NCBI GenBank assembly: GCA_041664165.1
Contig: JBAYLH010000007.1
Coordinates: 1-59,894, forward strand
Direction of reading: 5' to 3'
DNA: 59,894 nucleotides
From: Candidatus Buchananbacteria bacterium
Lineage (GTDB): Bacteria; Patescibacteriota; Patescibacteriia; Buchananbacterales; UBA6539
Below, one piece after another: positions 27-59,894 of the stretch. Both the position numbers and the translations under genes were made by a program. The notes beneath the pieces are model-generated. The model was not told the DNA's origin. It saw nothing but the letters and a program-made list of their open reading frames with translations, and ran no database searches. Numbering within the stretch: the first letter of the stretch is position 1; the number at the start of each line of letters is the position of its first letter.

Positions 27-3000
27 TTAATACTTTTCTATCACTTTGATCGAGGCAGCGGCCGATGGGATATTTTTCTTGTTCCAGTTATCTTGAACTT
101 CAATGACTGGTTTAACCAGGCAGTAGTTTTGATCCGCCGGACAATCCAAATTCGGACCACGATTCGGGGAATTAGAAGTCCGCTTTAACTGCCAATAATC
201 ATAAGTATGATAAATCGTAAACGGATTTTCCAAATTCGGCCGCTCGCGCAAAGAAACGCCGGAAACCGAAGTTTTTTCGCCGTCTTGCCAGTCAACCGAA
301 TAGGACTTCAAAGGCAGCTGGTTGGCATCAACTTTAACCGTAAAATCCAATTTAACGGCGCCAACACCGTTAATCACCGTACTTTTCTGGCCATTAACTA
401 GCGTACTAGGAATTGCCGGTTCAATCCAGCAAACGTCGCTGAAAACACCCATCGGATCGGGATTGCCGGCCGGACGCTTGTTCTCTCCACACCTAGGGAA
501 AGAACCGCAGTTGATTGGCGGATTGGCTAAACAGTCCCAAGTTAAGGCATTACTGTTACTCACTTCTTTATACCCGTCGCCAAAATGGTTGATATTGCAA
601 GTCGCGGTATTGGTATTAGCGCAAAGGCTTTTATCGGTAACCGTACAATTCGCTGAATTATCGCTGCAAAGACCGCCAGTGGCCGCCGTGAAATCCCAGC
701 CGGTGCCATAACTTTTCAGAAAAATCCGTTTTAAATAATTTATGTCGTGTAGTTCGCCCATCCTGGCCTGATACGGCGCGCCTAAAGACGGCTGGGGCGG
801 TTCATAGAAAAGCGGCTGGCGGTTATTGGTCGTCCGGCTGTCCCAGTCCGGCGGATTTTGCAGGCCGGCCGGTGGAACAATCGCGCCGAAAGGTTCGTAA
901 TCTGAAGATTGATAGGCAAAATCCGGACTGTCAATATTGCCGTTCACGGCTTGGGCGGCCGTCAGAAATTGATCATAATTAAACGGATCGTAATAAAGAT
1001 AATAATTCCGATAGCTAGCGCCGACTTTTTTGCTGTTGGGGTCAGGCAAGAGGTATTGAGAACCCGGCGCCACCCGCGTTGACCAGGCCTTATTATTGCC
1101 GGTCGCGTCAACCACCTGGACTACTTGCTTGCAATAATTAACATTAATATCGTTAGTTTTAAAATTACCGTAAACTCCCGGCGCTTGTTCGGAACCTTCC
1201 ACCAAATTAATTACCGCCACGCCGTAAATATCGTTAGGAATATCCGGCATCGGATCAACAAACTGGCCGGTAAACCGCGGGTCATTTTCCGTTACAATGG
1301 TAACGCCGGTCGCCATTCCGATTTTGGCGCTGAACTGAACTCCTGAACTTATTTGAAGCGCCGCGGCTATATTTTCCATATCGCCGCCAGCCGCAAAGCC
1401 AAGGAGTGCTGAACCGGCTTGAGTAAATAAATTTAGAAATAGAGCTTGTGATTGAAAAGTTTGCATATCATCAATATAGCTGGCTGAACTTATTTGCGTT
1501 GAATTGTAGAACTTAAAACTATTTATATTTAAAAGAAGAGCCGCAGATGGATCTCCGGGAGAACCACCTGCAAGATTACCTACTATATCTAATGCTGAAC
1601 CAATAAGTTGAGAAATTCCAGGGTCACCACCTAATGCCCCTATTAAACCGGTAATTGCCGACCAAGGAACTATGAAACTCAGGGTGGCCGGTAAAAAACC
1701 ATAAATCTCACTGCCTTGCGATTGTAAATTAAAAGTTACATCACAACCTTGTATATGATCAATATTAGGATCACAATTTCCCGTTGGACCAAACGGCGTG
1801 CTATCTACGGTCGGCGGTAAATTCAAAACCATTCCTAAACCTCGCATCGCGAAGGCGGGCAAGTTGTCCGGTTCAAATTTAAAGTGGCCCTTGATTTGCC
1901 GGACATACGGATAGCGGAAAAGCGGCCGGTAGTCTTCGTTGATTTGAAACGGCACCAGCTGAACCGATCGGCCCTGGTTGTCATTGCTGCCGGCGCTGTA
2001 GCTGGTATAAGTATTGAAAGTGGCCATCAGCTGAGTTGACGGGAAAGCCGGCATCTCGCCTTTTTGCACACAATAATAAAGCGGCGTCTGGATTTGGTAA
2101 GGCACGACTTCATCGGCCATTTCGCCTTTGATTTGGTCGATTGGCAGCCACTGGACGCACTGCTGGGGATTATTCGGATCAGCGGTCAGGCAATAGCCGT
2201 ATTGGCCGATATGATAAATATTTTTGGCGTCGATATATTCGCAGGCCAAAGAACTATATTCGGGGTAAACCCGGCAGCTGCGGGAGACAAAATCATTGGC
2301 CGCAAAATTCAAATCATTACTCGTAACATTTTTAACCTGCAAAACCGGTTTTAAAGAAATCTGGTCAAACAGGGAATAGCCGCTGATGCCGCACTTGGTA
2401 TCGTCTTTACCGTCCCGGCAAGTGGCAACGTCACTAGCATAATTACTCAAATAAAGCGTCATTTTTGAACCCTTATCGCCGGAATTAAAGTCATAAGTCA
2501 GCTTCTGCCATTTGTTGCCGCTGGGTAAAACCAAAGCTTTGGGGCAGCAAACTTTGCTTCCGCTGTTATAATAGTCTCCTTCTTTTCGGCAGCTACTTTC
2601 GATTTCTGGATAGTAACAGACTTGCCCCCGCAAATAAGTACCCGGCAAAGTTCCCATAGTGGGATCGTCATGTTTTAATTCTTCGGTATTAATCCAGGCG
2701 GTCAAAATATAGTCGGTATTTTTTTCCAAATCAATTTCGGAAGATTTTGCCTCATAAGACGTGTTTAATTTCAAGTATCGGCCTTCGAGCCGCTGTTTGG
2801 AATTGGTTTCCAAAGTATATTTGTAAGGCATCCAGCCGCGGCCGTCAGTCGTATGGTCTGAACTCTGATTGCTGTATTCGCTCCAGGCCAGCGGCTGATT
2901 AGTTTGGTTAAAAGCCAATTCAAAATCGCCGTTGGAAATATAAGCCGCATTGCCGTACTGGGTCATTTCCGCGTAGGGGAAATAGCCGTTGATAGTCCGG

Positions 3001-6000
3001 GCGCAAGTTGTGAACGAGCCGGTGCAATCATTTTTAGAGTTGCAGGCGGCGCCGTTATTCATGCCGTTAGCGCAAACGCCCTGGTTAAAGCTCAAGCCGG
3101 CCGTGGCATAACCGCTTAAATTTTTAATTTCCTCAACTGTGCTGAACGCCGACTTTCTTAAATCATTGCCGCTTGAATCTTTACCGGCCGCCGGAACAAA
3201 ATTAGTGCAAATGCCGCTCTCATCAGCCGCATTGCAAAGGCCGAGGCTGAGGCATTGCTTTTGTTCGCCTTCGCTGGTAACGGCCGTAACCGCGTAGCTG
3301 GTACAAGCCAGCCAAGCTTCGCATTCGCGATCCGGCGTTACTTTCAAGACGGCATTGGAATCGCAGCTGCCCGAACAATTCGCCACCGGCAAGCCGTTAT
3401 TAACGTTGATGCCGCTGGTGTCGGCGTCAAAGCCCAGGGAGCTGATGTCATCTTCGCCGATTTTGAAATTAACCTGGCTGCGGTCATTAAACAAAACACA
3501 GCCCCGCTCCGGATCAACGATGCCGTTGCAGCTGAATTCATCAACCGTGTTGCTTAAAGTATAATAAATGCCGGTTTTGAATAAATTGACTTGTTTGACT
3601 GAATCTTTAATGTTATCCAAATCGCTGCCTTTTAAGTCCAGTTTGCAAACTTGCTTTTTGGGCACCGTAAAGCGGACGGAATAGGTGGTTTCCGCTGGAA
3701 AATTGCTGATTTGGTCAATTGTCCGGCTGTCGGCCTGGTAATTTCTCGGCGGAATTTTAAACGATTTATTGTCGCTGGCGATTTCAATTGAATGGTCGAA
3801 GGAAACGGCGTTCGGGCAGTCTTTCATTTCAATCACTAACAGGCTGCCATCAAGTTTCTTTTTGGCAGTAAAACTCAAAGTATATAAAGTATTGGCTTCC
3901 AGCTGCAAACCTTCCTGCGTGTAATTATCAGCGCCTTTTACCCAGCCATCGGGGACACTATTATTATCACTATCCCGGCTTAAATCGCCGTTGAAGATTA
4001 AATTTTTGGCAATCGTGCTGACGGGATCAATAAACTGAGTGCAGGAATTGAATTCGCCCGGACATAAGCCCGTCCAGCCATTGCTCGGATGGACAGCACC
4101 GACCGGCGGCTGAACCAGCGGGCAATCCGGTATTGTCGAAGCTGAACCGGATTTGAACCAGGCCGAGCTCGCCTGGCCGGGGGCAACCCGGTATTCGCAG
4201 GTTTTGGCTCCCGGATCTTTGAAATAAGCCGTCCCGTTGCCGGTCCGAAATTCATCGCAGCCGAATTCCGAACTTTGGCAAAGAATTGAACTATATTTAT
4301 CCGGATCATTAATCAGATAAGCCGTCTGGTAGCCGACGACTTTGTCAGCCGTGCTGATTTGCGGCCAGCCCAAAGCCTGGCAGCCTTTGTTGGCCGCGGT
4401 GCATTGAAACTGCGGCCGGTTAACCAGATAAACCAATTTGTCAGCCGGCACGCTAACCGCCGAAATCGGATCGTTGGCATTAAATGGCACTTCCGGTTCA
4501 TAAGGCGAAGCGGAATTAAAAGTATCAATCAGCGCCTGGCAGCCGATTACTTCCTGGCGGCACAAATGGTCGAATGATTTTAAATTATGGGTTCGGCTGT
4601 AGGAATCCCGATACTGCTTGCAGCCGAGCATAAATTGCGGCGCGGCAATCGGACCGGACGAAAGCCACGGATTGGTGTCGCAGCTATTCGGCGTTTTCCA
4701 GGAATTTTTGATTTCATAAACATAATTTTGAACTTCTTTGATTTCAATATTATCCGCGTAGAAAGCCGGCGTCCCGCCATTTTCACCAGTTAAGCTTAAA
4801 GCTAAATCCGAAGGAATGGCATCGGGCATGGTAAACGGCCCGAAATTATAATAATTCCAGTCCGAACCGAGGTTGGTTGATTCTTGAATAATGGCGCTGC
4901 CGGCCGAACCGCTGGCGAGCTTAACTTTGATTGGAATAGTATTGGTGGTCGAGCCTTTGGCCCAAAAAGAAATCAAATAAGTCTTAATCGGTTTAATCAG
5001 CTGGCTCAAATCCGAGCAAGATGATTCGCCGACATTAATCAGGCAAACCTGGCCGCCGGCGGTATCATCGGAAACGCACTTGCCCAAAGTCCGATCGAAA
5101 CAATCTTTGGCGTTATTGCCGCTGCAGGCTGTTACGCTTTCCGTGCAATTGCCGCCAGACGATAATTTGCTGTAAGCGCTGGCAATAGTTTCCAAACCAG
5201 CCAGCTGCTGGCTTTTAATTGAGTGGCCGCCGACGGACAACGCTTCGCTGCTAATCGTGCCGCTCTTCCAACCGACCGTGTCGCCGGGTTCAAAATTATC
5301 GGCAAAAGCCGTAAAGACGTTGCCGCTGGCATTACCGCTGTATTCGCGGCAGCCGGCGACGTTATTAGAACAGGCCAAACCTTGGCTGGGAATTGCCTGG
5401 TAAACGCAAGTTTTACTGCTGCCGTCCCAGGTGCCATGGCTGGCAGTACAATTAGCCGTCGCTTCGGCATCGCCTTCGTTCAGCCGCGATTTGCGGAACG
5501 GATGGCAGTCATCTGAACAGGCGATGGTATTATTATAAATCCGATAATAAATATTGCCGTCAATGCCGTAAAATTCCTTGCAGAAAGGATTGGAAATTAT
5601 ATCTTCCGGCCCGTCGCAGCAAGCCGGCTGGCCGTTAGCGCCGGCCGCCGTATCAGCGCACCAGTAAGGCAGCCAGCTTGAAATATCCATGGCCGCTTGC
5701 GGCGAACCGGCCGCGGCGGCTAAATTATAGACTTTGAGCTGGTAGCCGGCTTCGTCGGAACCCTGCCAATTATAGAAATTCTGGCAGCTGACGCCCGGGT
5801 CATTCGGCTTTTCGCAAAGCCTCAGGTATTTATAATATTCCTTGCCTTCGCCGCCCTTGGCAACTTCGTCTAAATTGGTAAATTCATCGCAGCCGGCGCT
5901 GGCGGCATTGCATTGTTTTCCGGTGGCCGGAATGAAATAATTAATCGAAGCCTGGCTTTCAAAAAAAGTATTTGATTGTTTATAAGAATCATAGCCGACG

Positions 6001-9000
6001 CATTCCGCCGGGCAATAGTCTTCCAGTTTGACGACGCCCGGAATTGTGGTTCCGCCTTTTAGCGGGGTATAAGCTTCGCAGCCGACTTCGTCTTGCTGGC
6101 AATACAAAGCGTAATTGGCGCACTGGGGCGAATCAACTTCGTGGCAGCAAAAATTGCCGGCCGCATCGCAGCTGTCAGCGGCGCAGGTGCCAGAGCCGCA
6201 ATCGGAATTAGCGCTGCAGCCTTGGCCGGCTTTGTCACCGCCCTGGCAGAACTTCCGCCAGACCAAAGTGTCGCCAACGCACTGAGCTTTGGTAACGCCG
6301 TCTAAAACCGCGGGGTTTGGCCGATCCAAACTATAGCCTTTGCAATCCAGTGAAACCGGCGCTTTTTTCAGATAAGTTAGGTTAGCCGCGCCATAATCTT
6401 TGTAGCTGGTCGTTACCGGATTTTTAGTTTCAACTTCTTCGATTTGAACGCCGTCAAGATAAAGCGGCTTGGTATTATCGGTACTCAAATTAGCGATTGA
6501 GAGTTTAAAATTATCGCTGCTGATTCGGGTAGTAATCGGATTGGCGACAAATCTCTGCCATTGGTCGGTTAAATGCAAAAATGCCGAATTATTAATTTGA
6601 AGCGGCGAAAAATCAGCCAAGCATTTGCCCTGGTTTCGGCCGCCAGCCGGACAGCCGCTCACCCCGTCGGCGCAGGTGCATAAATCATTAGTTGGCTCGC
6701 AGCTTAAAGCCGGATTCAAACTGCAAAAATGATCCGGATTATGATCGGATAAAATTTCCAAATACCACAGGCCGTCTTCCGGTTTTATTTCTTTGGTCGT
6801 CGAATCGGTTTTGGCCCAAAAAGAAATCCGGTAAGTGGTGTTGGCTTTCAAACCGGTAACCGGCCCGGTATCAAAATCCCGCGGCCGGCCCAAATTATCA
6901 TTATTTATTTTCAAGCATAATTTACCCACCGGGCAATCATTTTGAATTTGTTCAATTGAAGCATTATCGCTCGCTTGATGGCTTTCTCCCCAAAACCAGC
7001 CTTTGGGCAAACTACTAGCATCCGGCCAGTCTTCAAAACTGGCATTGTCAATCAAATTCGTGCCGGCATTGGGCAAAGTCTGGATGAATTCGGAACAACC
7101 AGCTTCCTCGGCCGAACAAGAACCGGCATCGCGGTCTAAATATAATTTGCTTTCGTCGCGGTCAATCGTCCCGACCAAAGTTAAAACTGCCCGATTAGTG
7201 ATGCAGCTTTTGGAAATCCGGAAATTATCAAACCAAACCACACCACTGACTTGTTTAACGCCGTCGCCGACTTCAATTCCGACCTTCACTTTGCCTTTGC
7301 CGTTGCCGGCGGCCGTAACCTTAAAATCAAAACTGATTTGCTGCCAGCCATTTTCTTTATTGACCATTTTTTCCCCTAGCACGCTGCTAGCCAAAGCATC
7401 GGTAACTTTTAAAGTAACATCGCCTTGGTTTAAATAATCATAAACTTGACTTGAAAAAGTATAATCGCCGGCCGGCAATTCCAATTCGGCCGAAGTCGCC
7501 GATTCGTCAATAACCGAACCGTAGTTGAAAAATCTCAAGCTCGCCTGGCCGCCATCGGCATAAATTCTTTCCGCCCCGCCGGCAACCTGGCTGAAATATT
7601 CCCGGTTGCCTTGCCACTTCAAAGAAAGCTGGCCGGTTGCCGGTGCCACGGCCGTTTCAAAACTCGGATTAGGCAACAAATTATCCAGGCTACTGCAGCT
7701 GTCGATAGCGCAAGAAACTCCGTTTTGCTTGATGGTGCAGCCGGTATTGACCACGCATTTGCTGCCGCTGGCCACCCAGAATTTTGAGCCGGAACTGCAT
7801 TTGTCGCTGATAGTCAAATTAACCTGCGAATTGGCGTCAAGACAGAAATTCAAGCCGTTGGGAATATCGCAGCTCGCCGTTACCGGACAGCCGCCTTTCT
7901 GGGTGCAGGGTTTGAGAACTTTTTTACCCTCATTAACGCAAGTCCAAATATTGTCAACCGGATTATAAGTCTGGCAATACCATTTGCAGCCGGCGTTATT
8001 GATGCTGCAGCCGTTGTAATTCAAAGAATTGGCCAAATAGCTGGCCACTGAGCCGCTGCTGCTTTGAAAAGTCTGACAGGTGTTATAATTAGCGCTGCAA
8101 TCTTTTCCGGCTAAATCCCAAACTCTTTTTTCTTCGCTGCAATAGCCGTAATTGCGGCAAGTGCCGTCGTTATTCCGGCTGATACAAGACTGGAAATCCG
8201 CGCAATATTCGGCGCGGCCGATATCGAGACTGGCCGCTTCGTCAGCCGAGCTGCCGGTTTCGGCTTGATAGATAATTTTCGGCCCGAAGCCCTGATTTTT
8301 ACAGATGACTTCCGGCAATTTTAAAACCCAATCCGGATCAATCAAGCCGTGATAAATACTCGCCGCATCGTTAGGGTCATTAAATTTTGAAACTAAATAA
8401 TTAAGGGTAATAATTTTACCGGGATCAAGCAGATGACCGGCTTCGGCCGCTAATTCCCAGCCAACCGGCACAATCCGGTAACTCCTCATAATCACGATAT
8501 TCCGATAAGACAGCTCCAAATTTTTCGCCGTCGGATCAAAATTCCAGGCTCCGAACGGCGCTTCACCGTCAATTAACCCGGCCTTCAGCGCATCCTTTAA
8601 AGTCATTTTTCTTTCGATGATATCGCGAAAAGCCGGCGAAATCACGCATTCTTCCGATCCCGGATTTTTGGGATCAGGACAAAAACTCAATTTGCTTAAT
8701 AAATCATAATCGCTGCTCGGCTTAACGCCGGCTTCCAAAAAATCCAAAAACCGCCGTTCGGCCGCCTTCTTGCCGCCGTATAAAGACACTCCGGTGTCGC
8801 CGGTATATAAATCCTGACTGCCGCCAGGACCCGGCCGAGGCAATAAACCCGCCAAAGCCCGGGCCAAATCTTCAATATAATTTTCATCATTGCCGGCATT
8901 GCTGGCCAAACCCTGCCTAAACCATTTGTCAAAAAGTTTGGACATTAAAGTATTGGCAAAAGTCGCAATCGCATAACCAAAAATATCGCCGAAAGGAACG

Positions 9001-9959
9001 TCCTCGGCCGCCTTGGTGCCTTTGCTGAGCGCCTGGTAAGACGCTTCGGAAACCAAAGACGATGGCGTCAAAATCGAATCAGCAATTTTTTGGCCGACCG
9101 ACTTCCAGCCTTGGCCTTCCTGCCGGCCCAAAATCCCGGCTAATTCATCTTTGGCTTTGGTCTGATAATAAAAATCAAACATCGAAAAAGCAATGCCGAT
9201 GTCATTAGCTGACGGCTCAAAAATACCGGTGAATTTATTCAAAAAATTCGGATCCTTGGCAAAACTTTGCCAATTCTTTACTAGCTGGGTTACGGTGCAT
9301 TTCGGCGGTTTCGGCCGACCCAGTTCGCTGATTCCCAAACTGATTCTGATTTTAATCGGACTGGCCGGTTCGCAAACATTATAATGCAGCCAGCTGCCGC
9401 TCAAACTTTCCAAAAATTTACCGCCGGCGGCATCGGCCAAATCCTTTAAATAAGCGCCCCAGCCCTTGGTATAAAACATCGGCTTTTGGCCTTCATCGCC
9501 GGTCGCCAGCCAAGTGGCCGTATCATAAGCAAAGGTATTAAGCATGTGGCTGACTGCGGTTTTGGCCGCCGCGTAAACGGAGTCTTTCAAGCTTTCCCAG
9601 CCCCAGTCCCTGACTTTAAAGAAATTACCCCACCAATCCTGCAAGCGCTGAATAAAAGTCAGATTTTTATTGGTGGTTTTGGTATCTTTATCAACTGCAT
9701 TGATAGTATCTTTTTGATTACCAGTTACTTCATCAAATTGGGGCTTGGTTACTTCGACTTCAATTGCGCTGGGCGACGCTGCCGCTTTGACCGGCAGCGG
9801 ATATAAAGCCGCTGGCATTACCGAAACTAAAACCATTTGAACCGTAATAATGATGGAAGCGGTTTTTTTAAAGCCGGAAAACCAAGGCCGACTCACCCGA
9901 TTTTTCAGCTGGGTTTGACCGTCTCCTGGCTTGGCAGATTTATTTGAAAAGTAATTCAT
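27..9959 (-). CDS. Giant (3310 aa) secreted/surface protein, Cys-rich, with several CBM4/9-like (galactose-binding fold) domains
   Basis: Single long ORF; N-terminal hydrophobic segment (ASIIITVQMVLVSVMPAALY); recurring domain starts NLLPNPSFET, NLIDNASFED, NLIFNGDLS, YISNGDFE; about ten C-x4/5-(G/S/T)C-xx-(F/Y/L) modules. Confidence 0.8.
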   Translation of the reverse strand: MNYFSNKSAKPGDGQTQLKNRVSRPWFSGFKKTASIIITVQMVLVSVMPAALYPLPVKAAASPSAIEVEVTKPQFDEVTGNQKDTINAVDKDTKTTNKNLTFIQRLQDWWGNFFKVRDWGWESLKDSVYAAAKTAVSHMLNTFAYDTATWLATGDEGQKPMFYTKGWGAYLKDLADAAGGKFLESLSGSWLHYNVCEPASPIKIRISLGISELGRPKPPKCTVTQLVKNWQSFAKDPNFLNKFTGIFEPSANDIGIAFSMFDFYYQTKAKDELAGILGRQEGQGWKSVGQKIADSILTPSSLVSEASYQALSKGTKAAEDVPFGDIFGYAIATFANTLMSKLFDKWFRQGLASNAGNDENYIEDLARALAGLLPRPGPGGSQDLYTGDTGVSLYGGKKAAERRFLDFLEAGVKPSSDYDLLSKLSFCPDPKNPGSEECVISPAFRDIIERKMTLKDALKAGLIDGEAPFGAWNFDPTAKNLELSYRNIVIMRSYRIVPVGWELAAEAGHLLDPGKIITLNYLVSKFNDPNDAASIYHGLIDPDWVLKLPEVICKNQGFGPKIIYQAETGSSADEAASLDIGRAEYCADFQSCISRNNDGTCRNYGYCSEEKRVWDLAGKDCSANYNTCQTFQSSSGSVASYLANSLNYNGCSINNAGCKWYCQTYNPVDNIWTCVNEGKKVLKPCTQKGGCPVTASCDIPNGLNFCLDANSQVNLTISDKCSSGSKFWVASGSKCVVNTGCTIKQNGVSCAIDSCSSLDNLLPNPSFETAVAPATGQLSLKWQGNREYFSQVAGGAERIYADGGQASLRFFNYGSVIDESATSAELELPAGDYTFSSQVYDYLNQGDVTLKVTDALASSVLGEKMVNKENGWQQISFDFKVTAAGNGKGKVKVGIEVGDGVKQVSGVVWFDNFRISKSCITNRAVLTLVGTIDRDESKLYLDRDAGSCSAEEAGCSEFIQTLPNAGTNLIDNASFEDWPDASSLPKGWFWGESHQASDNASIEQIQNDCPVGKLCLKINNDNLGRPRDFDTGPVTGLKANTTYRISFWAKTDSTTKEIKPEDGLWYLEILSDHNPDHFCSLNPALSCEPTNDLCTCADGVSGCPAGGRNQGKCLADFSPLQINNSAFLHLTDQWQRFVANPITTRISSDNFKLSIANLSTDNTKPLYLDGVQIEEVETKNPVTTSYKDYGAANLTYLKKAPVSLDCKGYSLDRPNPAVLDGVTKAQCVGDTLVWRKFCQGGDKAGQGCSANSDCGSGTCAADSCDAAGNFCCHEVDSPQCANYALYCQQDEVGCEAYTPLKGGTTIPGVVKLEDYCPAECVGYDSYKQSNTFFESQASINYFIPATGKQCNAASAGCDEFTNLDEVAKGGEGKEYYKYLRLCEKPNDPGVSCQNFYNWQGSDEAGYQLKVYNLAAAAGSPQAAMDISSWLPYWCADTAAGANGQPACCDGPEDIISNPFCKEFYGIDGNIYYRIYNNTIACSDDCHPFRKSRLNEGDAEATANCTASHGTWDGSSKTCVYQAIPSQGLACSNNVAGCREYSGNASGNVFTAFADNFEPGDTVGWKSGTISSEALSVGGHSIKSQQLAGLETIASAYSKLSSGGNCTESVTACSGNNAKDCFDRTLGKCVSDDTAGGQVCLINVGESSCSDLSQLIKPIKTYLISFWAKGSTTNTIPIKVKLASGSAGSAIIQESTNLGSDWNYYNFGPFTMPDAIPSDLALSLTGENGGTPAFYADNIEIKEVQNYVYEIKNSWKTPNSCDTNPWLSSGPIAAPQFMLGCKQYRDSYSRTHNLKSFDHLCRQEVIGCQALIDTFNSASPYEPEVPFNANDPISAVSVPADKLVYLVNRPQFQCTAANKGCQALGWPQISTADKVVGYQTAYLINDPDKYSSILCQSSEFGCDEFRTGNGTAYFKDPGAKTCEYRVAPGQASSAWFKSGSASTIPDCPLVQPPVGAVHPSNGWTGLCPGEFNSCTQFIDPVSTIAKNLIFNGDLSRDSDNNSVPDGWVKGADNYTQEGLQLEANTLYTLSFTAKKKLDGSLLVIEMKDCPNAVSFDHSIEIASDNKSFKIPPRNYQADSRTIDQISNFPAETTYSVRFTVPKKQVCKLDLKGSDLDNIKDSVKQVNLFKTGIYYTLSNTVDEFSCNGIVDPERGCVLFNDRSQVNFKIGEDDISSLGFDADTSGINVNNGLPVANCSGSCDSNAVLKVTPDRECEAWLACTSYAVTAVTSEGEQKQCLSLGLCNAADESGICTNFVPAAGKDSSGNDLRKSAFSTVEEIKNLSGYATAGLSFNQGVCANGMNNGAACNSKNDCTGSFTTCARTINGYFPYAEMTQYGNAAYISNGDFELAFNQTNQPLAWSEYSNQSSDHTTDGRGWMPYKYTLETNSKQRLEGRYLKLNTSYEAKSSEIDLEKNTDYILTAWINTEELKHDDPTMGTLPGTYLRGQVCYYPEIESSCRKEGDYYNSGSKVCCPKALVLPSGNKWQKLTYDFNSGDKGSKMTLYLSNYASDVATCRDGKDDTKCGISGYSLFDQISLKPVLQVKNVTSNDLNFAANDFVSRSCRVYPEYSSLACEYIDAKNIYHIGQYGYCLTADPNNPQQCVQWLPIDQIKGEMADEVVPYQIQTPLYYCVQKGEMPAFPSTQLMATFNTYTSYSAGSNDNQGRSVQLVPFQINEDYRPLFRYPYVRQIKGHFKFEPDNLPAFAMRGLGMVLNLPPTVDSTPFGPTGNCDPNIDHIQGCDVTFNLQSQGSEIYGFLPATLSFIVPWSAITGLIGALGGDPGISQLIGSALDIVGNLAGGSPGDPSAALLLNINSFKFYNSTQISSASYIDDMQTFQSQALFLNLFTQAGSALLGFAAGGDMENIAAALQISSGVQFSAKIGMATGVTIVTENDPRFTGQFVDPMPDIPNDIYGVAVINLVEGSEQAPGVYGNFKTNDINVNYCKQVVQVVDATGNNKAWSTRVAPGSQYLLPDPNSKKVGASYRNYYLYYDPFNYDQFLTAAQAVNGNIDSPDFAYQSSDYEPFGAIVPPAGLQNPPDWDSRTTNNRQPLFYEPPQPSLGAPYQARMGELHDINYLKRIFLKSYGTGWDFTAATGGLCSDNSANCTVTDKSLCANTNTATCNINHFGDGYKEVSNSNALTWDCLANPPINCGSFPRCGENKRPAGNPDPMGVFSDVCWIEPAIPSTLVNGQKSTVINGVGAVKLDFTVKVDANQLPLKSYSVDWQDGEKTSVSGVSLRERPNLENPFTIYHTYDYWQLKRTSNSPNRGPNLDCPADQNYCLVKPVIEVQDNWNKKNIPSAAASIKVIEKY

Positions 9960-13369: not shown

Positions 13370-14401
13370 TCAGCCTCTTATCTGCTTCACGAATTTATAA
13401 ATTGAAAAAATTACCGGGTTAGTAACCAAATCAAAGCTGCCGACGTATTCTTTGGGCGCCGTTGACTGGGAAAAACTGGTTTTAAACCGCGTAATCCCTT
13501 GCCACTTGGCATTGTTGTAAGTTTGGCCGTTAACGCCGCCGAAATCATAAAAAGAACAGCCCTGCTTTTTTGCCGCGCTAATTGCTTCCCATTGCAAAAG
13601 GTACGGTGCCATGACTTCGCGGTATAAATCCGAAGAAGCGCCATGAAGATAAGTGCAATATTTGCCGAAAAAAGACACGATGTTAGCGGCAATTACTTTG
13701 TTGTCATATTCGGCAATAAATAATTTAACCAAATTTTCCGCCGCCAAAACCTCGAACATTTTTTTATAGTGTTCTTTGGTGTGGGGCTGAAAGCCATCGC
13801 GGCTTGAAGTCTGTTTGATTAATTGCCAAAAACTTTCAATGTCGGAAATTTCCGTGCTAATTCTAATATTAACTTTGTGCCGCTGAGCTAAGCCGATATT
13901 GTACCGGGTTTTCGGTTTCATGTCGACCAACAATTGATCCTCACTTTTGGCTAAATCGATAATGGCATTGCACTTCGGCTGAATTTCATATTCGCCTTTT
14001 CGGAAGCCAACGTCAGTTAAGCGCTTTTCATGACCCAAAATCCAGGGCGGGTCAACCCGGATTAAAAAACTTTTTTCCTCCCGGGCGATTTTTTTAATTT
14101 CGGCAAACAGCGAATCCAAATCATCAATTTTCAAAACATTAATTACCGGCCCGCGCGGACAGTAAAGATAATTATATTCAAAAGGCAAATCGTGTTTAAT
14201 TAACAAAGCCGCAGCCTGGAGCTGGCCTTCGTCGTCAATAACCCCGAGCCGGATGATATGATTATCCAAGGCTTTTTGAAAATCGCCCCAAAGCCAAGAC
14301 TGCAGCAGACCGCCGTCAGTGGCGTTGGTTTTAATGAAGCTATCCCAATGCTGTTTTAATTCATCGCCAACTTGGACTATCTGCATAAAACTAAATGACA
14401 A
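13370..14401 (-). CDS. FemAB/FemX-family peptidoglycan bridge aminoacyltransferase
   Basis: LLQSWLWGDF, YLYCPRGP, KTRYNIGLA, YLHGAS, YDFGG and GITRFKTSF motifs. Confidence 0.9.
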   Translation of the reverse strand: MSFSFMQIVQVGDELKQHWDSFIKTNATDGGLLQSWLWGDFQKALDNHIIRLGVIDDEGQLQAAALLIKHDLPFEYNYLYCPRGPVINVLKIDDLDSLFAEIKKIAREEKSFLIRVDPPWILGHEKRLTDVGFRKGEYEIQPKCNAIIDLAKSEDQLLVDMKPKTRYNIGLAQRHKVNIRISTEISDIESFWQLIKQTSSRDGFQPHTKEHYKKMFEVLAAENLVKLFIAEYDNKVIAANIVSFFGKYCTYLHGASSDLYREVMAPYLLQWEAISAAKKQGCSFYDFGGVNGQTYNNAKWQGITRFKTSFSQSTAPKEYVGSFDLVTNPVIFSIYKFVKQIRG

Positions 14402-20245: not shown

Positions 20246-21349
20246 TTAATGATTAAGCAAAAAATCAAAACTGCCGGAAATCATGGCATGGGCGTTCCTA
20301 ATTGCCCGGTCGCCAACTTGGCCGGCATATCGGCTGGTTATAATATCATTACCCACGGCAACCCAAGCGGCCTGGCTGCCGCCGATTCCCGCCAAAATAT
20401 CAGTTTGAAGCTGGGTAAAACCATTGAGCCCGGCTTGGCCTAAATTAAAAGCCATATCCGTCAAGACCACCTGCCGGGCTTCGGAAATTCGGCCCAAAGC
20501 ATCCCAATTCGCCTGGCCGCCGACATAATTAATTGCTGTTTGATTGGCAGCGACTAGCCTTGATTGATACAAAGCTTCGGCCTGTTGCGGCGACAGTACC
20601 GTGTTAGCATTTAAAGTGACGGTTTCGGAAGTACCGTTGGCATAAGTCAAAGTAACCTGGTCGCCCGGCGTAAACCGGCACCCGGCGCCAATCGTCCAAT
20701 TGCCGAGGTTATCCTGATAAGCGCCCAAAGAAAAATTGCCAGATCCTTCATTATTTAAAATATAAGAATAAGCATCGCCGGCATAACCGCCGGGTAAATT
20801 ATATTGCCCCGGATTGGGATAATAATCATAATCACCGATACCGGTATAACCGGGCGTAAAAATCGGACCGGTCACGCCGGGCAATTTCGCCACTTGAATC
20901 TGTTTGATTTTAATCCCCTGCAAATTAATTAATGAGGGATTAATGGTCGCTAAAATCATAAACGCAAAAAAGGCCAAAAGCAAGCCGCTCAAAGCGCTGG
21001 CGATAAATTCTTTGGCCGTGCCGACTTTATCCGGACTGCCGGCTGACATCAGCCAAACCAAGCCGCCGGCCATAATCATCACAATAGCCAAAGTCGCCGC
21101 CAAACCGATGCCGTATTTATACAAAGCCGAAATGTAATCGCCGATCCAAGGAATACAATAATTACCGCCGCAAGGCTCAATCGGTCCGAATTTAATCGGC
21201 GTATTGCCCAGCTGAAACTGAATTTTCGGTTCGCTAACCGCCCCGGAAGAATTGGGAATGGTAACGGTGTTTGAATCCGCTTTTAAACCAACGGGCAATA
21301 ATAAAAAAACTAAAAAAAATGAGAAAATAATAATCCTGAAATATTTCAT
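20246..21349 (-). CDS. VirB2/TrbC-like pilin fused to a T4-type (GH24) lysozyme domain
   Basis: Pilin segment YISALYKYGIGLAATLAIVMIMAGGLVWLMSAGSPDKVGTAKEFI; C-terminus ILNNEG...AYQDNLGNWTIGAG and RQVVLTDMAFNLGQAGLNGF...SRYAGQVGDRAIR parallel T4 lysozyme motifs. Confidence 0.85.
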   Translation of the reverse strand: MKYFRIIIFSFFLVFLLLPVGLKADSNTVTIPNSSGAVSEPKIQFQLGNTPIKFGPIEPCGGNYCIPWIGDYISALYKYGIGLAATLAIVMIMAGGLVWLMSAGSPDKVGTAKEFIASALSGLLLAFFAFMILATINPSLINLQGIKIKQIQVAKLPGVTGPIFTPGYTGIGDYDYYPNPGQYNLPGGYAGDAYSYILNNEGSGNFSLGAYQDNLGNWTIGAGCRFTPGDQVTLTYANGTSETVTLNANTVLSPQQAEALYQSRLVAANQTAINYVGGQANWDALGRISEARQVVLTDMAFNLGQAGLNGFTQLQTDILAGIGGSQAAWVAVGNDIITSRYAGQVGDRAIRNAHAMISGSFDFLLNH

Positions 21350-21429
21350 AAAAAGTAATGCTGCTCAATTTTAACTGACCTATGACCCTCGCCCGCTAAA
21401 TACTAAGTATAACTAGGCACGGAGACCCC

Positions 21430-21505
21430 ACTTCGACTCGAACGACGCGAGCCCGCTTCGCCGAATCGATTCCGAGTCGAAGCGAGGCGAGCCCGCTTCG
21501 CCGAA
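21430..21505 (-). repeat. GCGAGCCCGCTTCG repeat cluster between pilin genes
   Basis: Two cores gcgagcccgcttcgccgaa, the reverse complement of the array core at 48440/51470/59760. Confidence 0.75.
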
Positions 21506-21526
21506 ACAAAAGGTGGTTTAAAAAAA

Positions 21527-22396
21527 CTAACGCGGCCACTCCGGTACCCAGGTCCAATTAGCCCCGGCAGCTTCAACGTGAAAATGCCGCCCGGTTCCTC
21601 CCGGTTCATCCACGAAAATCGTACCGTCTCGCATTCTATATGCCCTGCCCCACGTAAGCTGAGTAAAATTTGACCCATCGGGATTTTTGATAGCATTGGT
21701 TGTTACATAGTTATAACAAGGAGCCGTCATACTCGCATCCCAGACATAACCCGAACCATGGCGGTTCTCACCGGCTCGATAGCCATCAGTCGAAGTGCAG
21801 CCTTGGTCTTGATAGAGTTGCCGCCTTTGATTTGCTTCGTCTGTTAGCTGAGTAAAATTGCCGCGAGCCGTGCCGCCGCCGGCTCCTGTCCCGGCTCCGA
21901 TTGCCGCAAATTCCGCTGAACCGCCCGAACCAAACCCGGGCGATATCACGCCCGGCAACTTCGCGACGGCGATTTGCTTTATCCTAATGGCTTCCAAGTT
22001 GGTCAGTTTCGGATTTATCGCCGTTAGCACCATAATGGCAAATAAGGCCAAAAACAATCCGCTCAAGGCGCTAGTGATAAACTCTTTGGCTTTACCGACT
22101 TTATCCGGACTGCCGGCCGACATCAGCCAAACTAACCCGCCGACCATAATCATCACAATGGCTAAAGCGGCGGCGAAACCGACGCCGTAGTTATATAAAG
22201 CGGAAATATACTGGCCAAGCCAAGGAATTGAACACTCGGAACCGGCGGTGCAACTGACCGTTTGAAAATCAATTTTAGTTGAGCCGATTATAACCTGCAT
22301 TTTAGGCGGCGTGGTCTCACCAGCGGCCAAAACTAAAACCGGCAGAAAAATTGTCAAAATTAAACTGGCTAATAAAATTTTATTTCTCTTTTTCAT
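21527..22396 (-). CDS. VirB2/TrbC-like pilin fused to a putative M15-like Zn peptidase domain
   Basis: Same pilin segment; C-terminal GYR...RHGSGYVWD and HFHVE match the H-x(3-6)-D / HxH pattern of M15/LAS peptidases. Confidence 0.75.
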   Translation of the reverse strand: MKKRNKILLASLILTIFLPVLVLAAGETTPPKMQVIIGSTKIDFQTVSCTAGSECSIPWLGQYISALYNYGVGFAAALAIVMIMVGGLVWLMSAGSPDKVGKAKEFITSALSGLFLALFAIMVLTAINPKLTNLEAIRIKQIAVAKLPGVISPGFGSGGSAEFAAIGAGTGAGGGTARGNFTQLTDEANQRRQLYQDQGCTSTDGYRAGENRHGSGYVWDASMTAPCYNYVTTNAIKNPDGSNFTQLTWGRAYRMRDGTIFVDEPGGTGRHFHVEAAGANWTWVPEWPR

Positions 22397-22508
22397 TCTC
22401 TAAAAAATTAATATTTCTGTAAAAAATCGAATAGGATAAATCACTTTTAACCAAGCTGCCAATCAATGACAACACTTACCATTTCCGCCCGCCCTAGCCG
22501 ATTAAATA

Positions 22509-23387
22509 TCACATTGAAATATTCAACCTATTTGATTGCATCATATTTTCTATATATGACAACCCGGATGACATATCCATATTATTCAAATTCTGAGCCA
22601 TATCCCTAAATAGTTGGGGGATAGGAAAAATCAAATTACCCGGTGAATACCAGTGATTAGCAAGATTTGCTTGATTTGAAGCATCAACCCAGGGTATGCC
22701 ATCATTTATCGTTCGCGCATCAATTCCCCCATAATAGTATTGCCACCGGCCATCGTAAAATCTTAAATTTAACACACTTGTTGCCGACATTCCGACACGA
22801 TTTATTTCCGGCGGCGTTTCGACATGGATAAATCTACCATTATCAAAATCAGTCGCAGAAATACGCGCATTTAGGCCATTAGTGATTCCTTCAAGCCGCG
22901 GATTTACCCCGGTAACGGTAATTCCTTTTAAATTAACCAAATTGGGATTAATCGTGGTTAAAATCATCACCGCAAAAAGCGCCAAAAGCAAACCGCTCAA
23001 AGCGCTGGCGATAAATTCTTTCGCTTTGCCGACTTTGTCCGGACTGCCGGCTGATAATAGCCAGACTAAGCCGCCGACCATAATCATCACAATAGCTAAG
23101 GCGGCGGCCAAACCGATGCCGTAGTTATATAAAACGGAAATATACTGGCCGATCCAGCTAATTTGCAAGCACTGAACGCCGTTGGCCGTGCCGTTGGGAC
23201 AATAATTCGAACCACTTTGCCAGCCGGCGTTTTCGCCCGTCCAGCCGCTAAAGCCGCCGAGATGAATTTGAACTGTCGGCACAATCGGATCAGCCGCCAA
23301 GGTCAGGTTGGCGCCAAAAATAAAAATGAAAAAAAATAGCAAAAATTTTCCCGGGAGGCTCAAATTAAAATTTATTTTTTTAGCCAC
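22509..23387 (-). CDS. VirB2/TrbC-like pilin with unrecognised C-terminal domain
   Basis: Same pilin segment (YISVLYNYGIGLAAALAIVMIMVGGLVWLLSAGSPDKVGKAKEF); AT-richer unrelated C-terminus; GTG start 3 nt after the dsbA stop. Confidence 0.75.
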   Translation of the reverse strand: MAKKINFNLSLPGKFLLFFFIFIFGANLTLAADPIVPTVQIHLGGFSGWTGENAGWQSGSNYCPNGTANGVQCLQISWIGQYISVLYNYGIGLAAALAIVMIMVGGLVWLLSAGSPDKVGKAKEFIASALSGLLLALFAVMILTTINPNLVNLKGITVTGVNPRLEGITNGLNARISATDFDNGRFIHVETPPEINRVGMSATSVLNLRFYDGRWQYYYGGIDARTINDGIPWVDASNQANLANHWYSPGNLIFPIPQLFRDMAQNLNNMDMSSGLSYIENMMQSNRLNISM

Positions 23388-23390
23388 AAA

Positions 23391-24146
23391 TTATTGGTTT
23401 AGATAAGAAGTAATCATCTGCTCAAAAACGTTAAAAGGAACCGCGCCGGAAAGCTTGAGTCCGTTGATAAAAAAAGTGGGCGTGGCGGTAACGCCTAAAT
23501 CGGCGCCAGCTTGTAAATCCTCTTCGATTTTTTTGAGATATTTGCCTTCGGCGATGCAGGTATCAAACAGCGGCATATTCAAACCAGTCTGCAGGGCATA
23601 GGTTCTCAAGTCCGGAGTTAATAATTTAGTCTGATTATCAAAAATTTTATCATACATCGGCCAAAATCCGCCTTGTTCATTGGCGCAAGCCCCGGCCATC
23701 GCCGCCATTAAGGCTTGGGGATGATTATCAACTAAGGGGAAATTGCGAAAGACAAAAAGAATCCGGTCGCCATAATCTTTTAAAAGCTTTTTAACCACGG
23801 GGTAGGCTTCTTCGCAAGCCGGACACTGAAAATCGGCAAATTCAACAATTACCACTTTAGCGTCTTTTTTGCCGAACTTGGGGTCGTCAACTCCAAAAAA
23901 GCTGGAAAAATCTTTCGGCTGGGCTGAATTGACATTGCCGAAAACCTGTTTTGGGCTGACTTCACCGCTTTTGACCAAAGTTACAACTCTGGCGGCATAA
24001 AAAATCAAAGCCGACAAAATCATCAAAAAAACCGCCGAGAAAGCCAAAATTATCCGGCCCCACCATTTCTGATACCATTTTTTTTTGGTTTTTCCGGTTT
24101 TTTGTTGGCTGGGCGGCAGATTAAAATAATCGTTTGAACTAGGCAT
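23391..24146 (-). CDS. Membrane-anchored DsbA-family thiol-disulfide oxidoreductase
   Basis: EFADFQCPAC active site, RNFPL, GVTATPTFFING (cis-Pro loop); N-terminal TM. Confidence 0.93.
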   Translation of the reverse strand: MPSSNDYFNLPPSQQKTGKTKKKWYQKWWGRIILAFSAVFLMILSALIFYAARVVTLVKSGEVSPKQVFGNVNSAQPKDFSSFFGVDDPKFGKKDAKVVIVEFADFQCPACEEAYPVVKKLLKDYGDRILFVFRNFPLVDNHPQALMAAMAGACANEQGGFWPMYDKIFDNQTKLLTPDLRTYALQTGLNMPLFDTCIAEGKYLKKIEEDLQAGADLGVTATPTFFINGLKLSGAVPFNVFEQMITSYLNQ

Positions 24147-29265: not shown

Positions 29266-30513
29266 ATGAAAAAACTTTTACTCTGTTTGCCGCTTTTATT
29301 AACCTTGCTTGTTTCCGGCTGTCAAGCACCACCGATTGCCCAACCTAATGTTAACGACAACGGTGCTAATTTGGATTCAATTGGTAAAACCATTAAAGGT
29401 AATGATGAATTCGGCTTGAATTTATATACTAAATACAAGACCAAAGACGGCAATATTTTCTTTTCACCCTATAGCATCTCTTCGGCTTTGGCGATGACTT
29501 ACGAAGGCGCCAAAGGCCAAACCGCCGCTGAAATGCAGAAAGTTTTCGGCTTTTTAGCCGACCCGACCGATCGCCGGTCTTCTTTTGCTAAAATCTACAA
29601 CGATTTGAACGCAAAAAATGAAGATTACCAGCTTAACACAGCCAACGCTTTATGGGTGCAAAAAGATTTTCCATTTTTAGCTGATTATCTTAACCTGGTT
29701 GAAAAATATTACGGTGGCAAAGCAACCAATTTGGATTTTATAAATCAAACCGAACAGTCCCGACAGACAATTAACCAATGGGTGGAAAAAAAGACTAATA
29801 ACAAGATTCAAAACCTCCTGCCCCAAGGCAGTGTTTCTGGTGACACCAGGCTGATTTTAACCAATGCCGTTTATTTCAAAGGAACCTGGCTTTTCCCGTT
29901 TGAAAAAAGCAGCACTCAAAAAAAAGATTTTCAGCTAACACCAACCAATACCGTTACTGTCGATATGATGCAACTATACGGCAAAAAATTTAAGTATAGC
30001 GAGACTAATAAACTCCAAGCCTTAGAAATACCATACAAGGGTGATAAAATTTCCATGCTAATTCTATTGCCAAAAAATAACGATTTGGCGTATCTGGAAA
30101 ATAACCTCAACTTGAAAAATTTAAATGAGTGGAAAACCAGCATGAACTCAGAAAAAGTCACAGTTTTTTTACCTAAATATAAATTTGATACAAAATATGA
30201 TATGGCCCAAGATTTAACTCAATTAGGCATGCCAACCGCTTTCAATTGTTCACTCGCTGATTTCTCCGGCATGACCGGCAAAACTGACTTATGTATTGAC
30301 CAGGTCATTCATAAAGCCTTTATTGAAGTTGATGAACAGGGAACTGAAGCCGCGGCGGCTACGGCGGTTATCATGAAGACTAGCATGGCTGGTCCGACTC
30401 AACCAGAAAAAATCTACTTTTTTAATGCTGATCATCCATTTATCTTCTTAATTCAAGACAAACAAAGCGGCAATATCTTATTTTTAGGCCGAGTCAGCGA
30501 CCCGACCAAATAA
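29266..30513 (+). CDS. Serpin-family protease inhibitor, probable lipoprotein
   Basis: NIFFSPYSISSALAMTYEGAKGQT, hinge EQGTEAAAATAV, FNADHPFIFLI; lipobox LLVSGC. Confidence 0.95.
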   Translation: MKKLLLCLPLLLTLLVSGCQAPPIAQPNVNDNGANLDSIGKTIKGNDEFGLNLYTKYKTKDGNIFFSPYSISSALAMTYEGAKGQTAAEMQKVFGFLADPTDRRSSFAKIYNDLNAKNEDYQLNTANALWVQKDFPFLADYLNLVEKYYGGKATNLDFINQTEQSRQTINQWVEKKTNNKIQNLLPQGSVSGDTRLILTNAVYFKGTWLFPFEKSSTQKKDFQLTPTNTVTVDMMQLYGKKFKYSETNKLQALEIPYKGDKISMLILLPKNNDLAYLENNLNLKNLNEWKTSMNSEKVTVFLPKYKFDTKYDMAQDLTQLGMPTAFNCSLADFSGMTGKTDLCIDQVIHKAFIEVDEQGTEAAAATAVIMKTSMAGPTQPEKIYFFNADHPFIFLIQDKQSGNILFLGRVSDPTK

Positions 30514-48205: not shown

Positions 48206-48715
48206 GTCATTCTGAGTTCCGATCGCCGGCCGTGATGGCAGGTAGGCGACCAGAACGAAGAATCTCGACTCAATGAGACAAACCGAGATCCTTCGGCCTC
48301 CGGCCTCAGGATGACAATTCGGCGTATAGCTGTTTTAATTTCCAGGCTAAGCCTCAAGACAAGTCTCAGTCTCCAAGCTGTGTCGTCTAAAGACCAACAC
48401 TTGTGTTGACCGCTAATACTACAAAACAAGTTTTGTTCACCTCGCTTGACGCGAGTCGAAGCGGGCTCGCCTCGATTCGGCGAAGCGGGCTCGCCTCGCT
48501 TCGACTCGGAATCGACTCGGCGAAGCGGGCTCGCCTCGACTCAACCGCCCGCTTAACGTGAGTCGAAGCGGGTTCTCCGGGCTGCATCGCACTTGTGCTA
48601 CCAATCGGATAACCCCGCACTAAAACTTAGTATTTGTAACTGCTCGGCTTCGCCTCACAGACAAATACTAAAAAAAAGACCAGCTAAGCTCGTCTTAAAC
48701 GACAAGTAGCTGGTC
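48206..48715. repeat. Composite repeat element copy 1 (REP-like unit, GAAGCGGGCTCGCCTCG array, conserved hairpins/terminator)
   Basis: Shares 48393-48440 and 48627-48715 with the element at 51284-51938. Confidence 0.8.
48671..48715 (-). terminator. Intrinsic terminator after purC
   Basis: GACCAGCTA...TAGCTGGTC stem followed by T-run on the - strand; near-identical one at 51891-51938 after purH. Confidence 0.7.
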
Positions 48716-51283: not shown

Positions 51284-51938
51284 AATTTGTCATTCCACAC
51301 TGGTCTATTGATGACAGGCTTGAGGCGGAATCCAGGAGTCCTTTTTTGCCGCCCATGGCGACATAAGCCCAGGGCTACGCCTCATAACAAATCTCGGATT
51401 CCCAAGCCGCGCCGTCTGGCGGAGACCAACACTTGTGTTGGCCGCTAAAACTACAAAACAAGTTTTGTTCGCCTCGATTCGGCGAAGCGGGCTCGCCTCG
51501 ATTCCGATCGCTTCCGAGTCGAAGCGGGCTCGCCTCGATTCGGCGAAGCGGGCTCGCCTCGATTCCGATCGCTTCCGAGTCGGAGCGGGCTCGCCTCGCT
51601 TGACGCGAGTCGGAGCGGGCTCGCCTCGCTCGACGCGAGTCGGAGCGGGCTCTCCACTAGTCAAGTTAAGCTGCCGGACTAAAGTCCGGCCTGCGTGGAG
51701 AACCCAGCTTATCCCGCTCCAAGTTTGCGAACCGGCTTTAATTAATATTATCGTCTAGTTGGCGCAAAGATCGCCTTACCTGAAATAAACTCAATTATCG
51801 GCTGGTAAGATTAATAATCATGTTTAATTAGGAACTTGGTGCGGGATTAGTATTTGTAACTGCTCGGCTTCACCTCGCGGACAAATATTAAAAAAAAGAC
51901 CAGCTAAGCTCGTCTTATATTGACAAGTCTAACTGGTC
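51284..51938. repeat. Composite repeat element copy 2
   Basis: First ~220 bp nearly identical to 59573-59790; internal array of six (A/G)GCGGGCTC cores; right end shared with copy 1. Confidence 0.9.
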
Positions 51939-59572: not shown

Positions 59573-59894
59573 AATTTGTCATTCCGCACTGGTTTATTGA
59601 CGATAGGCTTGATGCGGAATCCAGGAGTCCTTTTTTGCCGCCCATGGCGACATAAGCCCAGGGCTACGCCTCATAACAAATCTCGGATTCCCAAGCCGCG
59701 CCGTCTGGCGGAAACCAACACTTGTGTTGGCCGCTAAAACTACAAAACAAGTTTTGTTCACCTCGATTCGGCGAAGCGGGCTCGCCTCGCTTGACGCGAG
59801 TCGAAGCGGGCTCGCCTCGCTTGACGCGAGTCGAAGCGGGCTCGCCTCGCTTGACGCGAGTCGAAGCGGGCTCGCCTCGCTTGACGCGAGTCGA
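59573..59894. repeat. Composite repeat element copy 3, truncated by the window end; includes a 30-bp tandem repeat
   Basis: TTGACGCGAGTCGAAGCGGGCTCGCCTCGC repeated exactly three times from 59791 plus a partial fourth. Confidence 0.92.

Follow-up and report, generated by a model that had tools for sequence, protein, structure and literature searches.

The 59,894-nucleotide contig JBAYLH010000007.1 of a Candidatus Buchananbacteria assembly (GCA_041664165.1) carries a gene for a DsbA-like thiol:disulfide oxidoreductase followed by three genes for pilin-like proteins, here called P3, P2 and P1. The stretch of DNA that was analysed, referred to below as the window, is the whole of this 59.9-kb contig. 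A preliminary description of the same DNA had claimed four co-oriented genes, and all four indeed lie on the minus strand at 20246-24146. The features of the array are as follows.

23391..24146, minus strand: DsbA-like thiol:disulfide oxidoreductase, 251 aa
22509..23387, minus strand: P3, 292 aa from a GTG start (277 aa by other gene callers)
22944..23162, minus strand: pilin hairpin core of P3 (ISWIGQY...TINP), aa 76-148
21527..22396, minus strand: P2, 289 aa
22010..22228, minus strand: pilin hairpin core of P2, aa 57-129
21530..21865, minus strand: predicted C-terminal clan-MD (LAS-type) zinc peptidase domain of P2, with R207, H213, D220, H271 and H273
21350..21526, minus strand: P2-P1 intergenic spacer, containing a GC-rich 23-nt repeat twice, the copies folding into a long hairpin
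20246..21349, minus strand: P1, 367 aa
20936..21154, minus strand: pilin hairpin core of P1, aa 66-138
20249..20782, minus strand: predicted C-terminal T4-lysozyme-like (GH24) muramidase domain of P1, with E201, D213 and T219

Only 3 nt separate dsbA from P3, with 112 nt between P3 and P2 and 177 nt between P2 and P1. No terminator-like sites were seen in the gaps of the dsbA-pilin array, weak promoter-like sites occur upstream of dsbA and upstream of P2, and a single predicted operon running dsbA-P3-P2-P1 is plausible. Fold prediction gave the hairpin in the P2-P1 spacer a value of -64.8 kcal/mol (z = -3).

The pilin cores of the three proteins, measured from IPWxGxY to INPxLxNL (73 aa plus 5), have protein identities of 78-83% and DNA identities of 80-83%, and a repeat search of the window returned a direct repeat family of 283 nt in three copies at 75-78% identity. 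Two DNA strings had been quoted as evidence of near-identical pilin segments, and both were recovered: the first at 21021, 22095 and 23029 with 0, 0 and 1 mismatch, and the second at 21071, 22145 and 23079, where dinucleotide shuffles give an expectation of 0 matches. Over their whole lengths the three proteins are just 42-43% identical because the tails fail to align. The tails of P1, P2 and P3 are thus unrelated beyond the shared core, as the preliminary description had proposed for what it called swapped C-termini. Its placing of the break directly after INPxL needs correction, since P1 and P2 stay similar for ∼20 further residues (IxIKQIxVAKLPGV) and their divergence point therefore lies later than that of P3. 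A recent duplication or an assembly artefact was also considered for the repeat in the window and ruled out by the synonymous divergence of the cores (dS 0.58-0.84) and by identical proteins in four independent assemblies.

The core falls within the type IV secretion system (T4SS) pilin family PF18895 (T4SS_pilin). P2 and P3 score 27.7 and 28.8 bits, both above the gathering cut-off of 26.6; P1 scores 18.9 bits, under the cut-off, and its core is nonetheless 78-83% identical to those of P2 and P3. Among the closest relatives 123 of 149 match PF18895, the best at 1.8e-25. All three proteins have the architecture of the family, namely a signal peptide and then a pair of hydrophobic helices with a short basic loop between them. 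In an AlphaFold2 model of P2 the helices span residues 58-92 and 97-127 around the loop GSPDKVGKAKE, short strands lie before and after the hairpin, and a Gly-rich disordered linker (residues 143-177, pLDDT <50) leads to a folded tail (pLDDT ∼95). This model was built with a 26-sequence alignment and was used instead of a single-sequence model, in which the tail had pLDDT <50. Sec-type signal peptides are readable at the N-termini of P1, P2 and P3, and together with the Lys-rich loop between the helices they would place the Cys loop and the tail outside the cytoplasm. The claim that these are VirB2-like pilins holds for the PF18895 module; no similarity to classical TrbC/VirB2 proteins was detected. 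As far as the comparisons go, the label is founded on PF18895 membership, architecture and gene context and not on demonstrable homology to Agrobacterium or F pilins. The NCBIfam models gave only sub-threshold hits on the pilins, including one at 0.006 to a 'pilin-like conjugal transfer protein' of a Mycoplasma integrative and conjugative element.

The family also has short free-standing pilins (110-145 aa), which align over their full length with P1, P2 and P3; they end 8-10 residues past the INP motif, exactly where the tails of P1, P2 and P3 start. This coincidence and the disordered linker after the junction would suit a scheme in which the tails are cleaved off near INPxLxxL and act as soluble hydrolases in the manner of secreted bacteriolysins, leaving the core to mature to an ordinary pilin; the pilin TrbC of RP4 undergoes C-terminal processing. 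We regard such release as quite improbable, because no protease or cleavage motif was identified and because in the P2 model the strand after INP seems to belong to the folded module.

Interchangeable cell-wall hydrolases had been proposed for the tails, and this stood for P1 and P2, whose tails are hydrolase homologues with catalytic residues, and not for P3, whose tail has no detectable hydrolase relationship. In P1, the signal peptide, Cys loop and core are followed by a Gly/Pro/Tyr-rich linker and a GH24 lysozyme tail. This tail matches Pfam Phage_lysozyme (PF00959) at 22.9 bits against a cut-off of 22.3, and a phmmer search against PDB sequences aligned it with T4 lysozyme at 6.5e-8 across residues 14-161 of the phage enzyme. 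E201, D213 and T219 of P1 align with the catalytic residues E11, D20 and T26 of T4 lysozyme; in seven relatives with P1-type tails the Glu and Asp are invariant and the Thr varies. We take the P1 tail, on this alignment, to be a T4-lysozyme homologue with its predicted catalytic residues intact.

P2 has the same order of signal peptide, Cys loop and core, followed by a linker (∼143-177) and a zinc-peptidase tail (aa 178-289). The tail gave no Pfam hit. H213, D220 and H273 are invariant in its 26-member subfamily, and R207 and H271 are present in P2. A profile of the tail matches PDB entry 9flh at 1.9e-4 with ∼20% identity, aligning an R/H/D/HxH set common to the two, and gives weaker matches to the Sonic hedgehog N-domain and to VanY-like carboxypeptidases. 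The 9flh structure is taken to be the MT3 domain of pneumococcal VldE (Spr1875), because the spacing in the alignment (R, H +7, D +7, HxH) exactly fits the published R294/H301/D308/H373/H375. VldE is a clan-MD L,D-endopeptidase, and MT3 is named for motif 3 of the tape-measure protein of mycobacteriophage TM4. In phages a structural protein resembling a filament carries this motif. Unlike P2, VldE has a LysM anchor and acts on the cell's own septal wall (PMC11667670). By these matches the P2 tail is predicted to be a VldE-MT3-like zinc peptidase of clan MD (LAS-type) with the R/H/D/HxH set intact.

P3 again has a signal peptide, Cys loop and core, and ends in an orphan tail (aa 149-292). In a local phmmer search this tail showed similarity to one sequence only, the N-terminal ectodomain of a relative, P0116, and this pairwise match was weak (3e-6). 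The two share a motif, N[FL]RFYDGxWQY..., at P3 aa 204-281 (∼22545-22778) and P0116 aa 47-101. The motif lies N-terminal to the core in P0116, and the module is therefore attachable at either outer end of the hairpin.

The character of the P3 tail, non-enzymatic as far as is visible, bears on a different explanation of the array, in which the paralogs diversify what the pilus exposes for binding to host strains and the tails are binding modules and not enzymes. Host-range adaptation has been proposed for pilin arrays (PMC12102498), and many tails among the relatives are Cys-rich and without a catalytic signature. The E/D/T residues of P1 and the H/D/H residues of P2, the latter with the Arg and the second His, argue for active enzymes, and we consider variation of a surface or adhesin kind very improbable as the account of this array.

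A membrane anchor (∼aa 29-52) lies at the N-terminus of the DsbA-like protein, whose active site is CPAC (aa 108-111), and the protein matches the Pfam families Thioredoxin_4 (8.3e-30) and DSBA (4.2e-17). With a thioredoxin fold, a CxxC motif and an anchor that would hold it outside the cytoplasm, it has the predicted characters of a DsbA-type oxidoreductase. Its linkage to the pilins extends well beyond the window: among 45 related loci drawn from GTDB species genomes, a DsbA homologue lies on the same strand directly upstream in 37, with a median dsbA-to-pilin gap of 1 nt, and most of the loci without an upstream dsbA are cut at a contig end. The Cys pair that had been pointed out before the pilin helix was located at C60/C65 in P1, C49/C55 in P2 and C63/C73 in P3, which gives each protein a Cys-x(4-9)-Cys loop in a short outer segment. 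Of 150 relatives, 115 have such a pre-core pair; the short pilins that were aligned are without it. Cysteine makes up 4.5% of the tails versus 1.7% of the other proteins of the window, and 127 of 139 tails contain an even number of cysteines. Oxidation of both loop and tail by DsbA would fit these features. In many relatives the tails are long and Cys-rich, show CxxxC and SGxC-like motifs repeatedly and match no Pfam family (for example P0042, P0082, P0014, P0110 and L029 5178-7406). Such tails may be disulfide-knotted binding domains, which would fit the conserved DsbA.

The relatives were collected by an exhaustive profile search with the core, an earlier word-index search having given three proteins only. 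At E ≤1e-3 the core family comprises 30,774 cluster representatives. The 151 closest representatives have a median tail of 164 aa, with tails of at least 80 aa in 133, and these tails fall into ∼60 BLAST groups. A survey of homologues across the candidate phyla radiation (CPR) had been suggested as a check on tail diversity, and among the closest relatives the idea was borne out, the tails being highly variable and the recognised domains dominated by wall hydrolases. All tail-type Pfam domains found in the relatives at E ≤1e-3 are wall hydrolases or peptidases: 3D (seven members), SLT (six), Phage_lysozyme (six), Glucosaminidase (two), and Peptidase_M15, VanY and SLT_3 (one each). The other Pfam families were single-member matches, mostly to hydrophobic or transporter models. 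A scan of tail representatives adds M23 and Peptidase_C39_2, and many further tails are Cys-rich and unannotated. Two to three tandem pilin genes occur in ∼20 related loci. The modular architecture, the diversity of tails and the partnership with DsbA are thus conserved features of a large CPR subfamily.

The closest core relatives are all from metagenome-assembled genomes (MAGs) of Patescibacteria, mainly Buchananbacteria and Uhrbacteria. A number of loci are labelled as coming from 'uncultured Gammaproteobacteria bacterium' MAGs (L006, L012-L014, L017, L021, L024, L025, L028, L029, L033, L034, L036-L038 and L043); these labels look wrong, as the loci are of the CPR dsbA-pilin type and several have CPR flanking synteny. 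In ten relatives (P0012, P0020, P0021, P0045, P0080, P0093, P0098, P0101, P0103 and P0137) two to four pilin cores stand in tandem within one polypeptide, and several of these covalent pilin concatemers end in an SLT-type tail.

Comparison of whole arrays indicated how cores and tails evolve. Sixteen arrays contain two or more complete genes, and in 15 of these no two genes have a tail of the same family. Mean core identity is 74% within a locus, and between loci 53% for cores with the same tail type and 47% for cores with different tails; cores therefore group by genome and not by tail. The sharpest case is locus L004, in which neighbouring cores share 97% of their DNA (96% at third codon positions) and the DNA 30-210 nt downstream is 25% identical, the level of chance. 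This pattern is the mark left either by gene conversion restricted to the core or by a recent duplication after which the tail was replaced. Loci L008 (92% of core DNA and 86% of third positions) and L005 (89% and 78%) are intermediate. The cores of the window, with dS of 0.58-0.84 and dN/dS of 0.12-0.18, are older and under purifying selection. In having a conserved N-terminal module with variable C-termini exchanged by recombination, the arrays follow the pattern of polymorphic toxins, and the preliminary description was also right that no immunity genes are evident: the gaps between pilin genes are 112 and 177 nt here, those in relatives do not exceed 391 nt, and none holds a conserved open reading frame. 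No such frame fits between the genes, and immunity genes are therefore absent from the array; as a candidate component they were ruled out by the shortage of intergenic space.

The array stands in a largely housekeeping region. The window encodes KsgA, Sua5, FemAB, LeuRS, UvrA, SecG, RNase J, TrpRS, SHMT and purine genes as well as one tRNA, and the order RNase J-SBP-SecG-[dsbA-pilins]-UvrA-LeuRS-FemAB is conserved in 10-16 loci, so that the array is a variable cassette in a fixed chromosomal frame. No T4SS machinery lies inside the window. A longer contig of the organism (ENA ERZ27249449, 99.7 kb) extends beyond window position 1, and on it a T4SS cluster starts ∼21 kb from P1, with a TraC-like gene ∼15 genes away; by way of this contig the genomic association with T4SS machinery that is expected of PF18895 pilins was found. 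In the ∼70 kb visible there are no further pilin-core genes. The cluster follows a giant protein and has the following extent and content.

L050 20062-29933: T4SS cluster with a 1402-aa TrbL_3/VirB6-like protein, a 418-aa unknown, a GIY-YIG protein, MetK, a 375-aa unknown, PrgI (VirB3-like) and a TraC-like gene cut by the end of the locus

This setting invites a plainer explanation, according to which the proteins are housekeeping membrane-anchored autolysins. The hairpin would then be a mere two-helix anchor, and the enzymes would remodel the cell's own wall during growth, division or the insertion of envelope machines, never acting in a pilus or at a host. The conserved housekeeping frame, the absence of immunity genes and the lack of classical VirB2 similarity all suit such a role, as do the ten relatives with two to four tandem hairpins, which are easier to picture as a membrane platform than as filament subunits. 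Housekeeping autolysins are usually conserved, however, and here the type of tail shifts between close relatives as well as among the genes of nearly all arrays; turnover of tails at a fixed locus argues for an interaction-driven rather than a housekeeping role. The conservation of the hairpin, both in its dN/dS and in motifs common to the short free-standing pilins, exceeds what a simple anchor needs, and a T4SS cluster is nearby. We judge the autolysin explanation unlikely.

Taken together, these results led us to favour, with a probability of roughly 0.6, a conserved dsbA-led array of modular pilins that dock to a T4SS, with tails that cut peptidoglycan and are exchanged between cores. The interpretation in the preliminary description is, at the molecular level, largely borne out, and overall it is partly supported. 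Mechanistically, the Sec pathway would insert the modular pilins into the membrane, where the co-translated, membrane-anchored DsbA would oxidise the cysteines of loop and tail. Through the hairpin the proteins would then dock to the T4SS close by, as subunits of the pilus or at its base, and the tails would cleave peptidoglycan in its glycan strands and its stem peptides. Their target may be the cell's own wall, letting the apparatus out and so providing an otherwise missing VirB1 function, and/or the wall of the host at the site of contact. Likeness among the cores of a genome would be kept by purifying selection with occasional gene conversion, and tail exchange at the core-tail junction would give lineage-specific sets of wall-cutting activities. 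Display on a pilus, and a target in the host wall rather than in the cell's own, are inferred.

Several observations weigh against this favoured interpretation. At E ≤1 there was no hit to PF04956 (TrbC/VirB2) in P1, P2 or P3, and just one of 149 relatives has one (6.7e-8); in hhalign, a profile of the CPR pilins matched a seven-sequence VirB2/TrbC profile with a probability of 1.1%; and the core profile had no hit among PDB sequences and thus no solved pilin. Pilus formation by this family is still called a possibility in a 2025 review (PMC12857230), and no reported experiment shows PF18895 proteins forming a pilus in any CPR organism. A domain of 15-25 kDa on each subunit may also be hard to pack on a helical filament. 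For the tails, no enzymatic motif was recognisable in that of P3, which had no homology match in PDB, Pfam or the word index, and for the full-length P2 model Foldseek found no match at E ≤0.001 in PDB or BFVD. The Foldseek matches were non-significant helical hairpins and tape-measure proteins, the search having failed to reach significance because the helical hairpin dominated the alignments. Finally, the neighbourhood of SecG, UvrA, LeuRS and FemAB with its conserved synteny would also suit an ordinary autolysin locus, and immunity genes are lacking although the enzymes face the producer's own wall.

The array can be compared with several known systems. In type VI secretion systems (T6SS), VgrG3 carries a C-terminal peptidoglycan hydrolase, and Hcp and PAAR proteins occur with toxin extensions; there, as in the array, a subunit of the apparatus bears a variable C-terminal effector, often a wall hydrolase. 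The machine and the fold are different, however, and the effectors of T6SS come with cognate immunity genes. CDI, Rhs, LXG and other polymorphic toxin systems likewise have a conserved N-terminal trafficking module, swapped C-termini, recombination at the junction and tandem cassettes. Unlike them, the array lacks immunity genes, its payloads are extracytoplasmic wall hydrolases and not cytoplasmic toxins, and its cassettes are whole genes that each have a core of their own. VirB1-type hydrolases, which in monoderms include PrgK, TraG and CD419, are also wall hydrolases dedicated to a T4SS; virB1 directly adjoins virB2 in classical MPF_T loci, and the monoderm versions are membrane-anchored and multi-domain. 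In contrast, the hydrolase of the array is fused to the pilin module and its type varies (GH24, clan MD, SLT, 3D, M23, C39-like), and the tails in the window are neither SLT nor CHAP domains. PilB and PilC of Streptococcus sanguinis, a monoderm, are pilins with a functional domain grafted at the C-terminus and displayed on the filament; they differ from the array in being type IV pilins and not T4SS pilins, in carrying adhesin or lectin modules and in having no tail swapping within arrays (PMC8179133).

Arrays of VirB2-like pilins are already known from Patescibacteria, where a survey found 441 of them, with 2-11 genes each, to be widespread (Quinonero-Coronel et al., 2025; PMC12102498). The present locus agrees with the published arrays in having PF18895 proteins, tandem co-oriented CPR paralogs and virB4 within ∼15 genes, and its paralogs are 42-43% identical versus a mean of 25% and a maximum of 54% in the survey. 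The survey treats the proteins as pilins only, with no mention of C-terminal enzymes, tail swapping, homogenisation of the cores or a dsbA partner. We came across no account of fusions between pilins and hydrolases, of tail swapping or of coupling to dsbA in the literature searched, a statement that holds for that library only. NCBI annotation calls the relatives simply 'pilin'. The one Saccharibacteria locus that was retrieved encodes a short pilin of 147 aa.

Other features of the window were recorded alongside the array. The giant protein next to the T4SS cluster (window 27-9959, minus strand; 3310 aa) is Cys-rich and has an N-terminal membrane segment and a CBM_4_9 domain; it may be a surface adhesin or a wall-binding partner of the system. 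A FemAB-family gene (13370-14401, minus strand) lies three genes downstream of the array, a synteny kept in L002 and L003. FemAB-type modification of cross-bridges is a known means of self-protection against lysostaphin, and a similar protection against the array's own peptidase is a speculative possibility. A full-length bacterial serpin is encoded in this CPR genome at window 29266-30513 (plus strand; Pfam Serpin, 2.5e-124). The GC-rich repeat of the P2-P1 spacer has the core GGCGAAGCGGGCTCGC in tandem units of 24-30 nt; it occurs 16 times in the window versus 0.55 expected, always in clusters, at the following positions.

21443-21505, minus strand: GC-rich repeat cluster
48455-48577, plus strand: GC-rich repeat cluster
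51469-51654, plus strand: GC-rich repeat cluster
59770-59894, plus strand: GC-rich repeat cluster

The last of these extends to the end of the contig, which suggests that the repeat broke the assembly.

The favoured interpretation bears on how CPR epibionts breach their own walls and those of their hosts, and on what their essential pilin arrays do; the locus offers a concrete candidate answer to both. Ca. Southlakia epibionticum cannot dispense with its pilin array (Wang et al., 2023; PMC10633639), and most Patescibacteria genomes with VirB2 are without VirB1 (PMC12102498), a reported lack for which wall-cutting pilin tails offer an explanation. The logic of cassette exchange, with a conserved core and swapped tails, may track host range. 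A stronger version, which we put forward tentatively and hold to be somewhat doubtful, is a modular T4SS pilus of a 'self-drilling' kind: the pilin subunit would itself deliver polymorphic wall-degrading domains, the dedicated DsbA would mature the subunits, gene conversion would keep the polymerising core uniform, and the tails would be shuffled to match the wall chemistry of the host. If true, a self-drilling pilus would represent a new class of effectors borne on a secretion apparatus without immunity proteins, and it would account for two features of Patescibacteria, the essential pilin arrays and the lack of VirB1.

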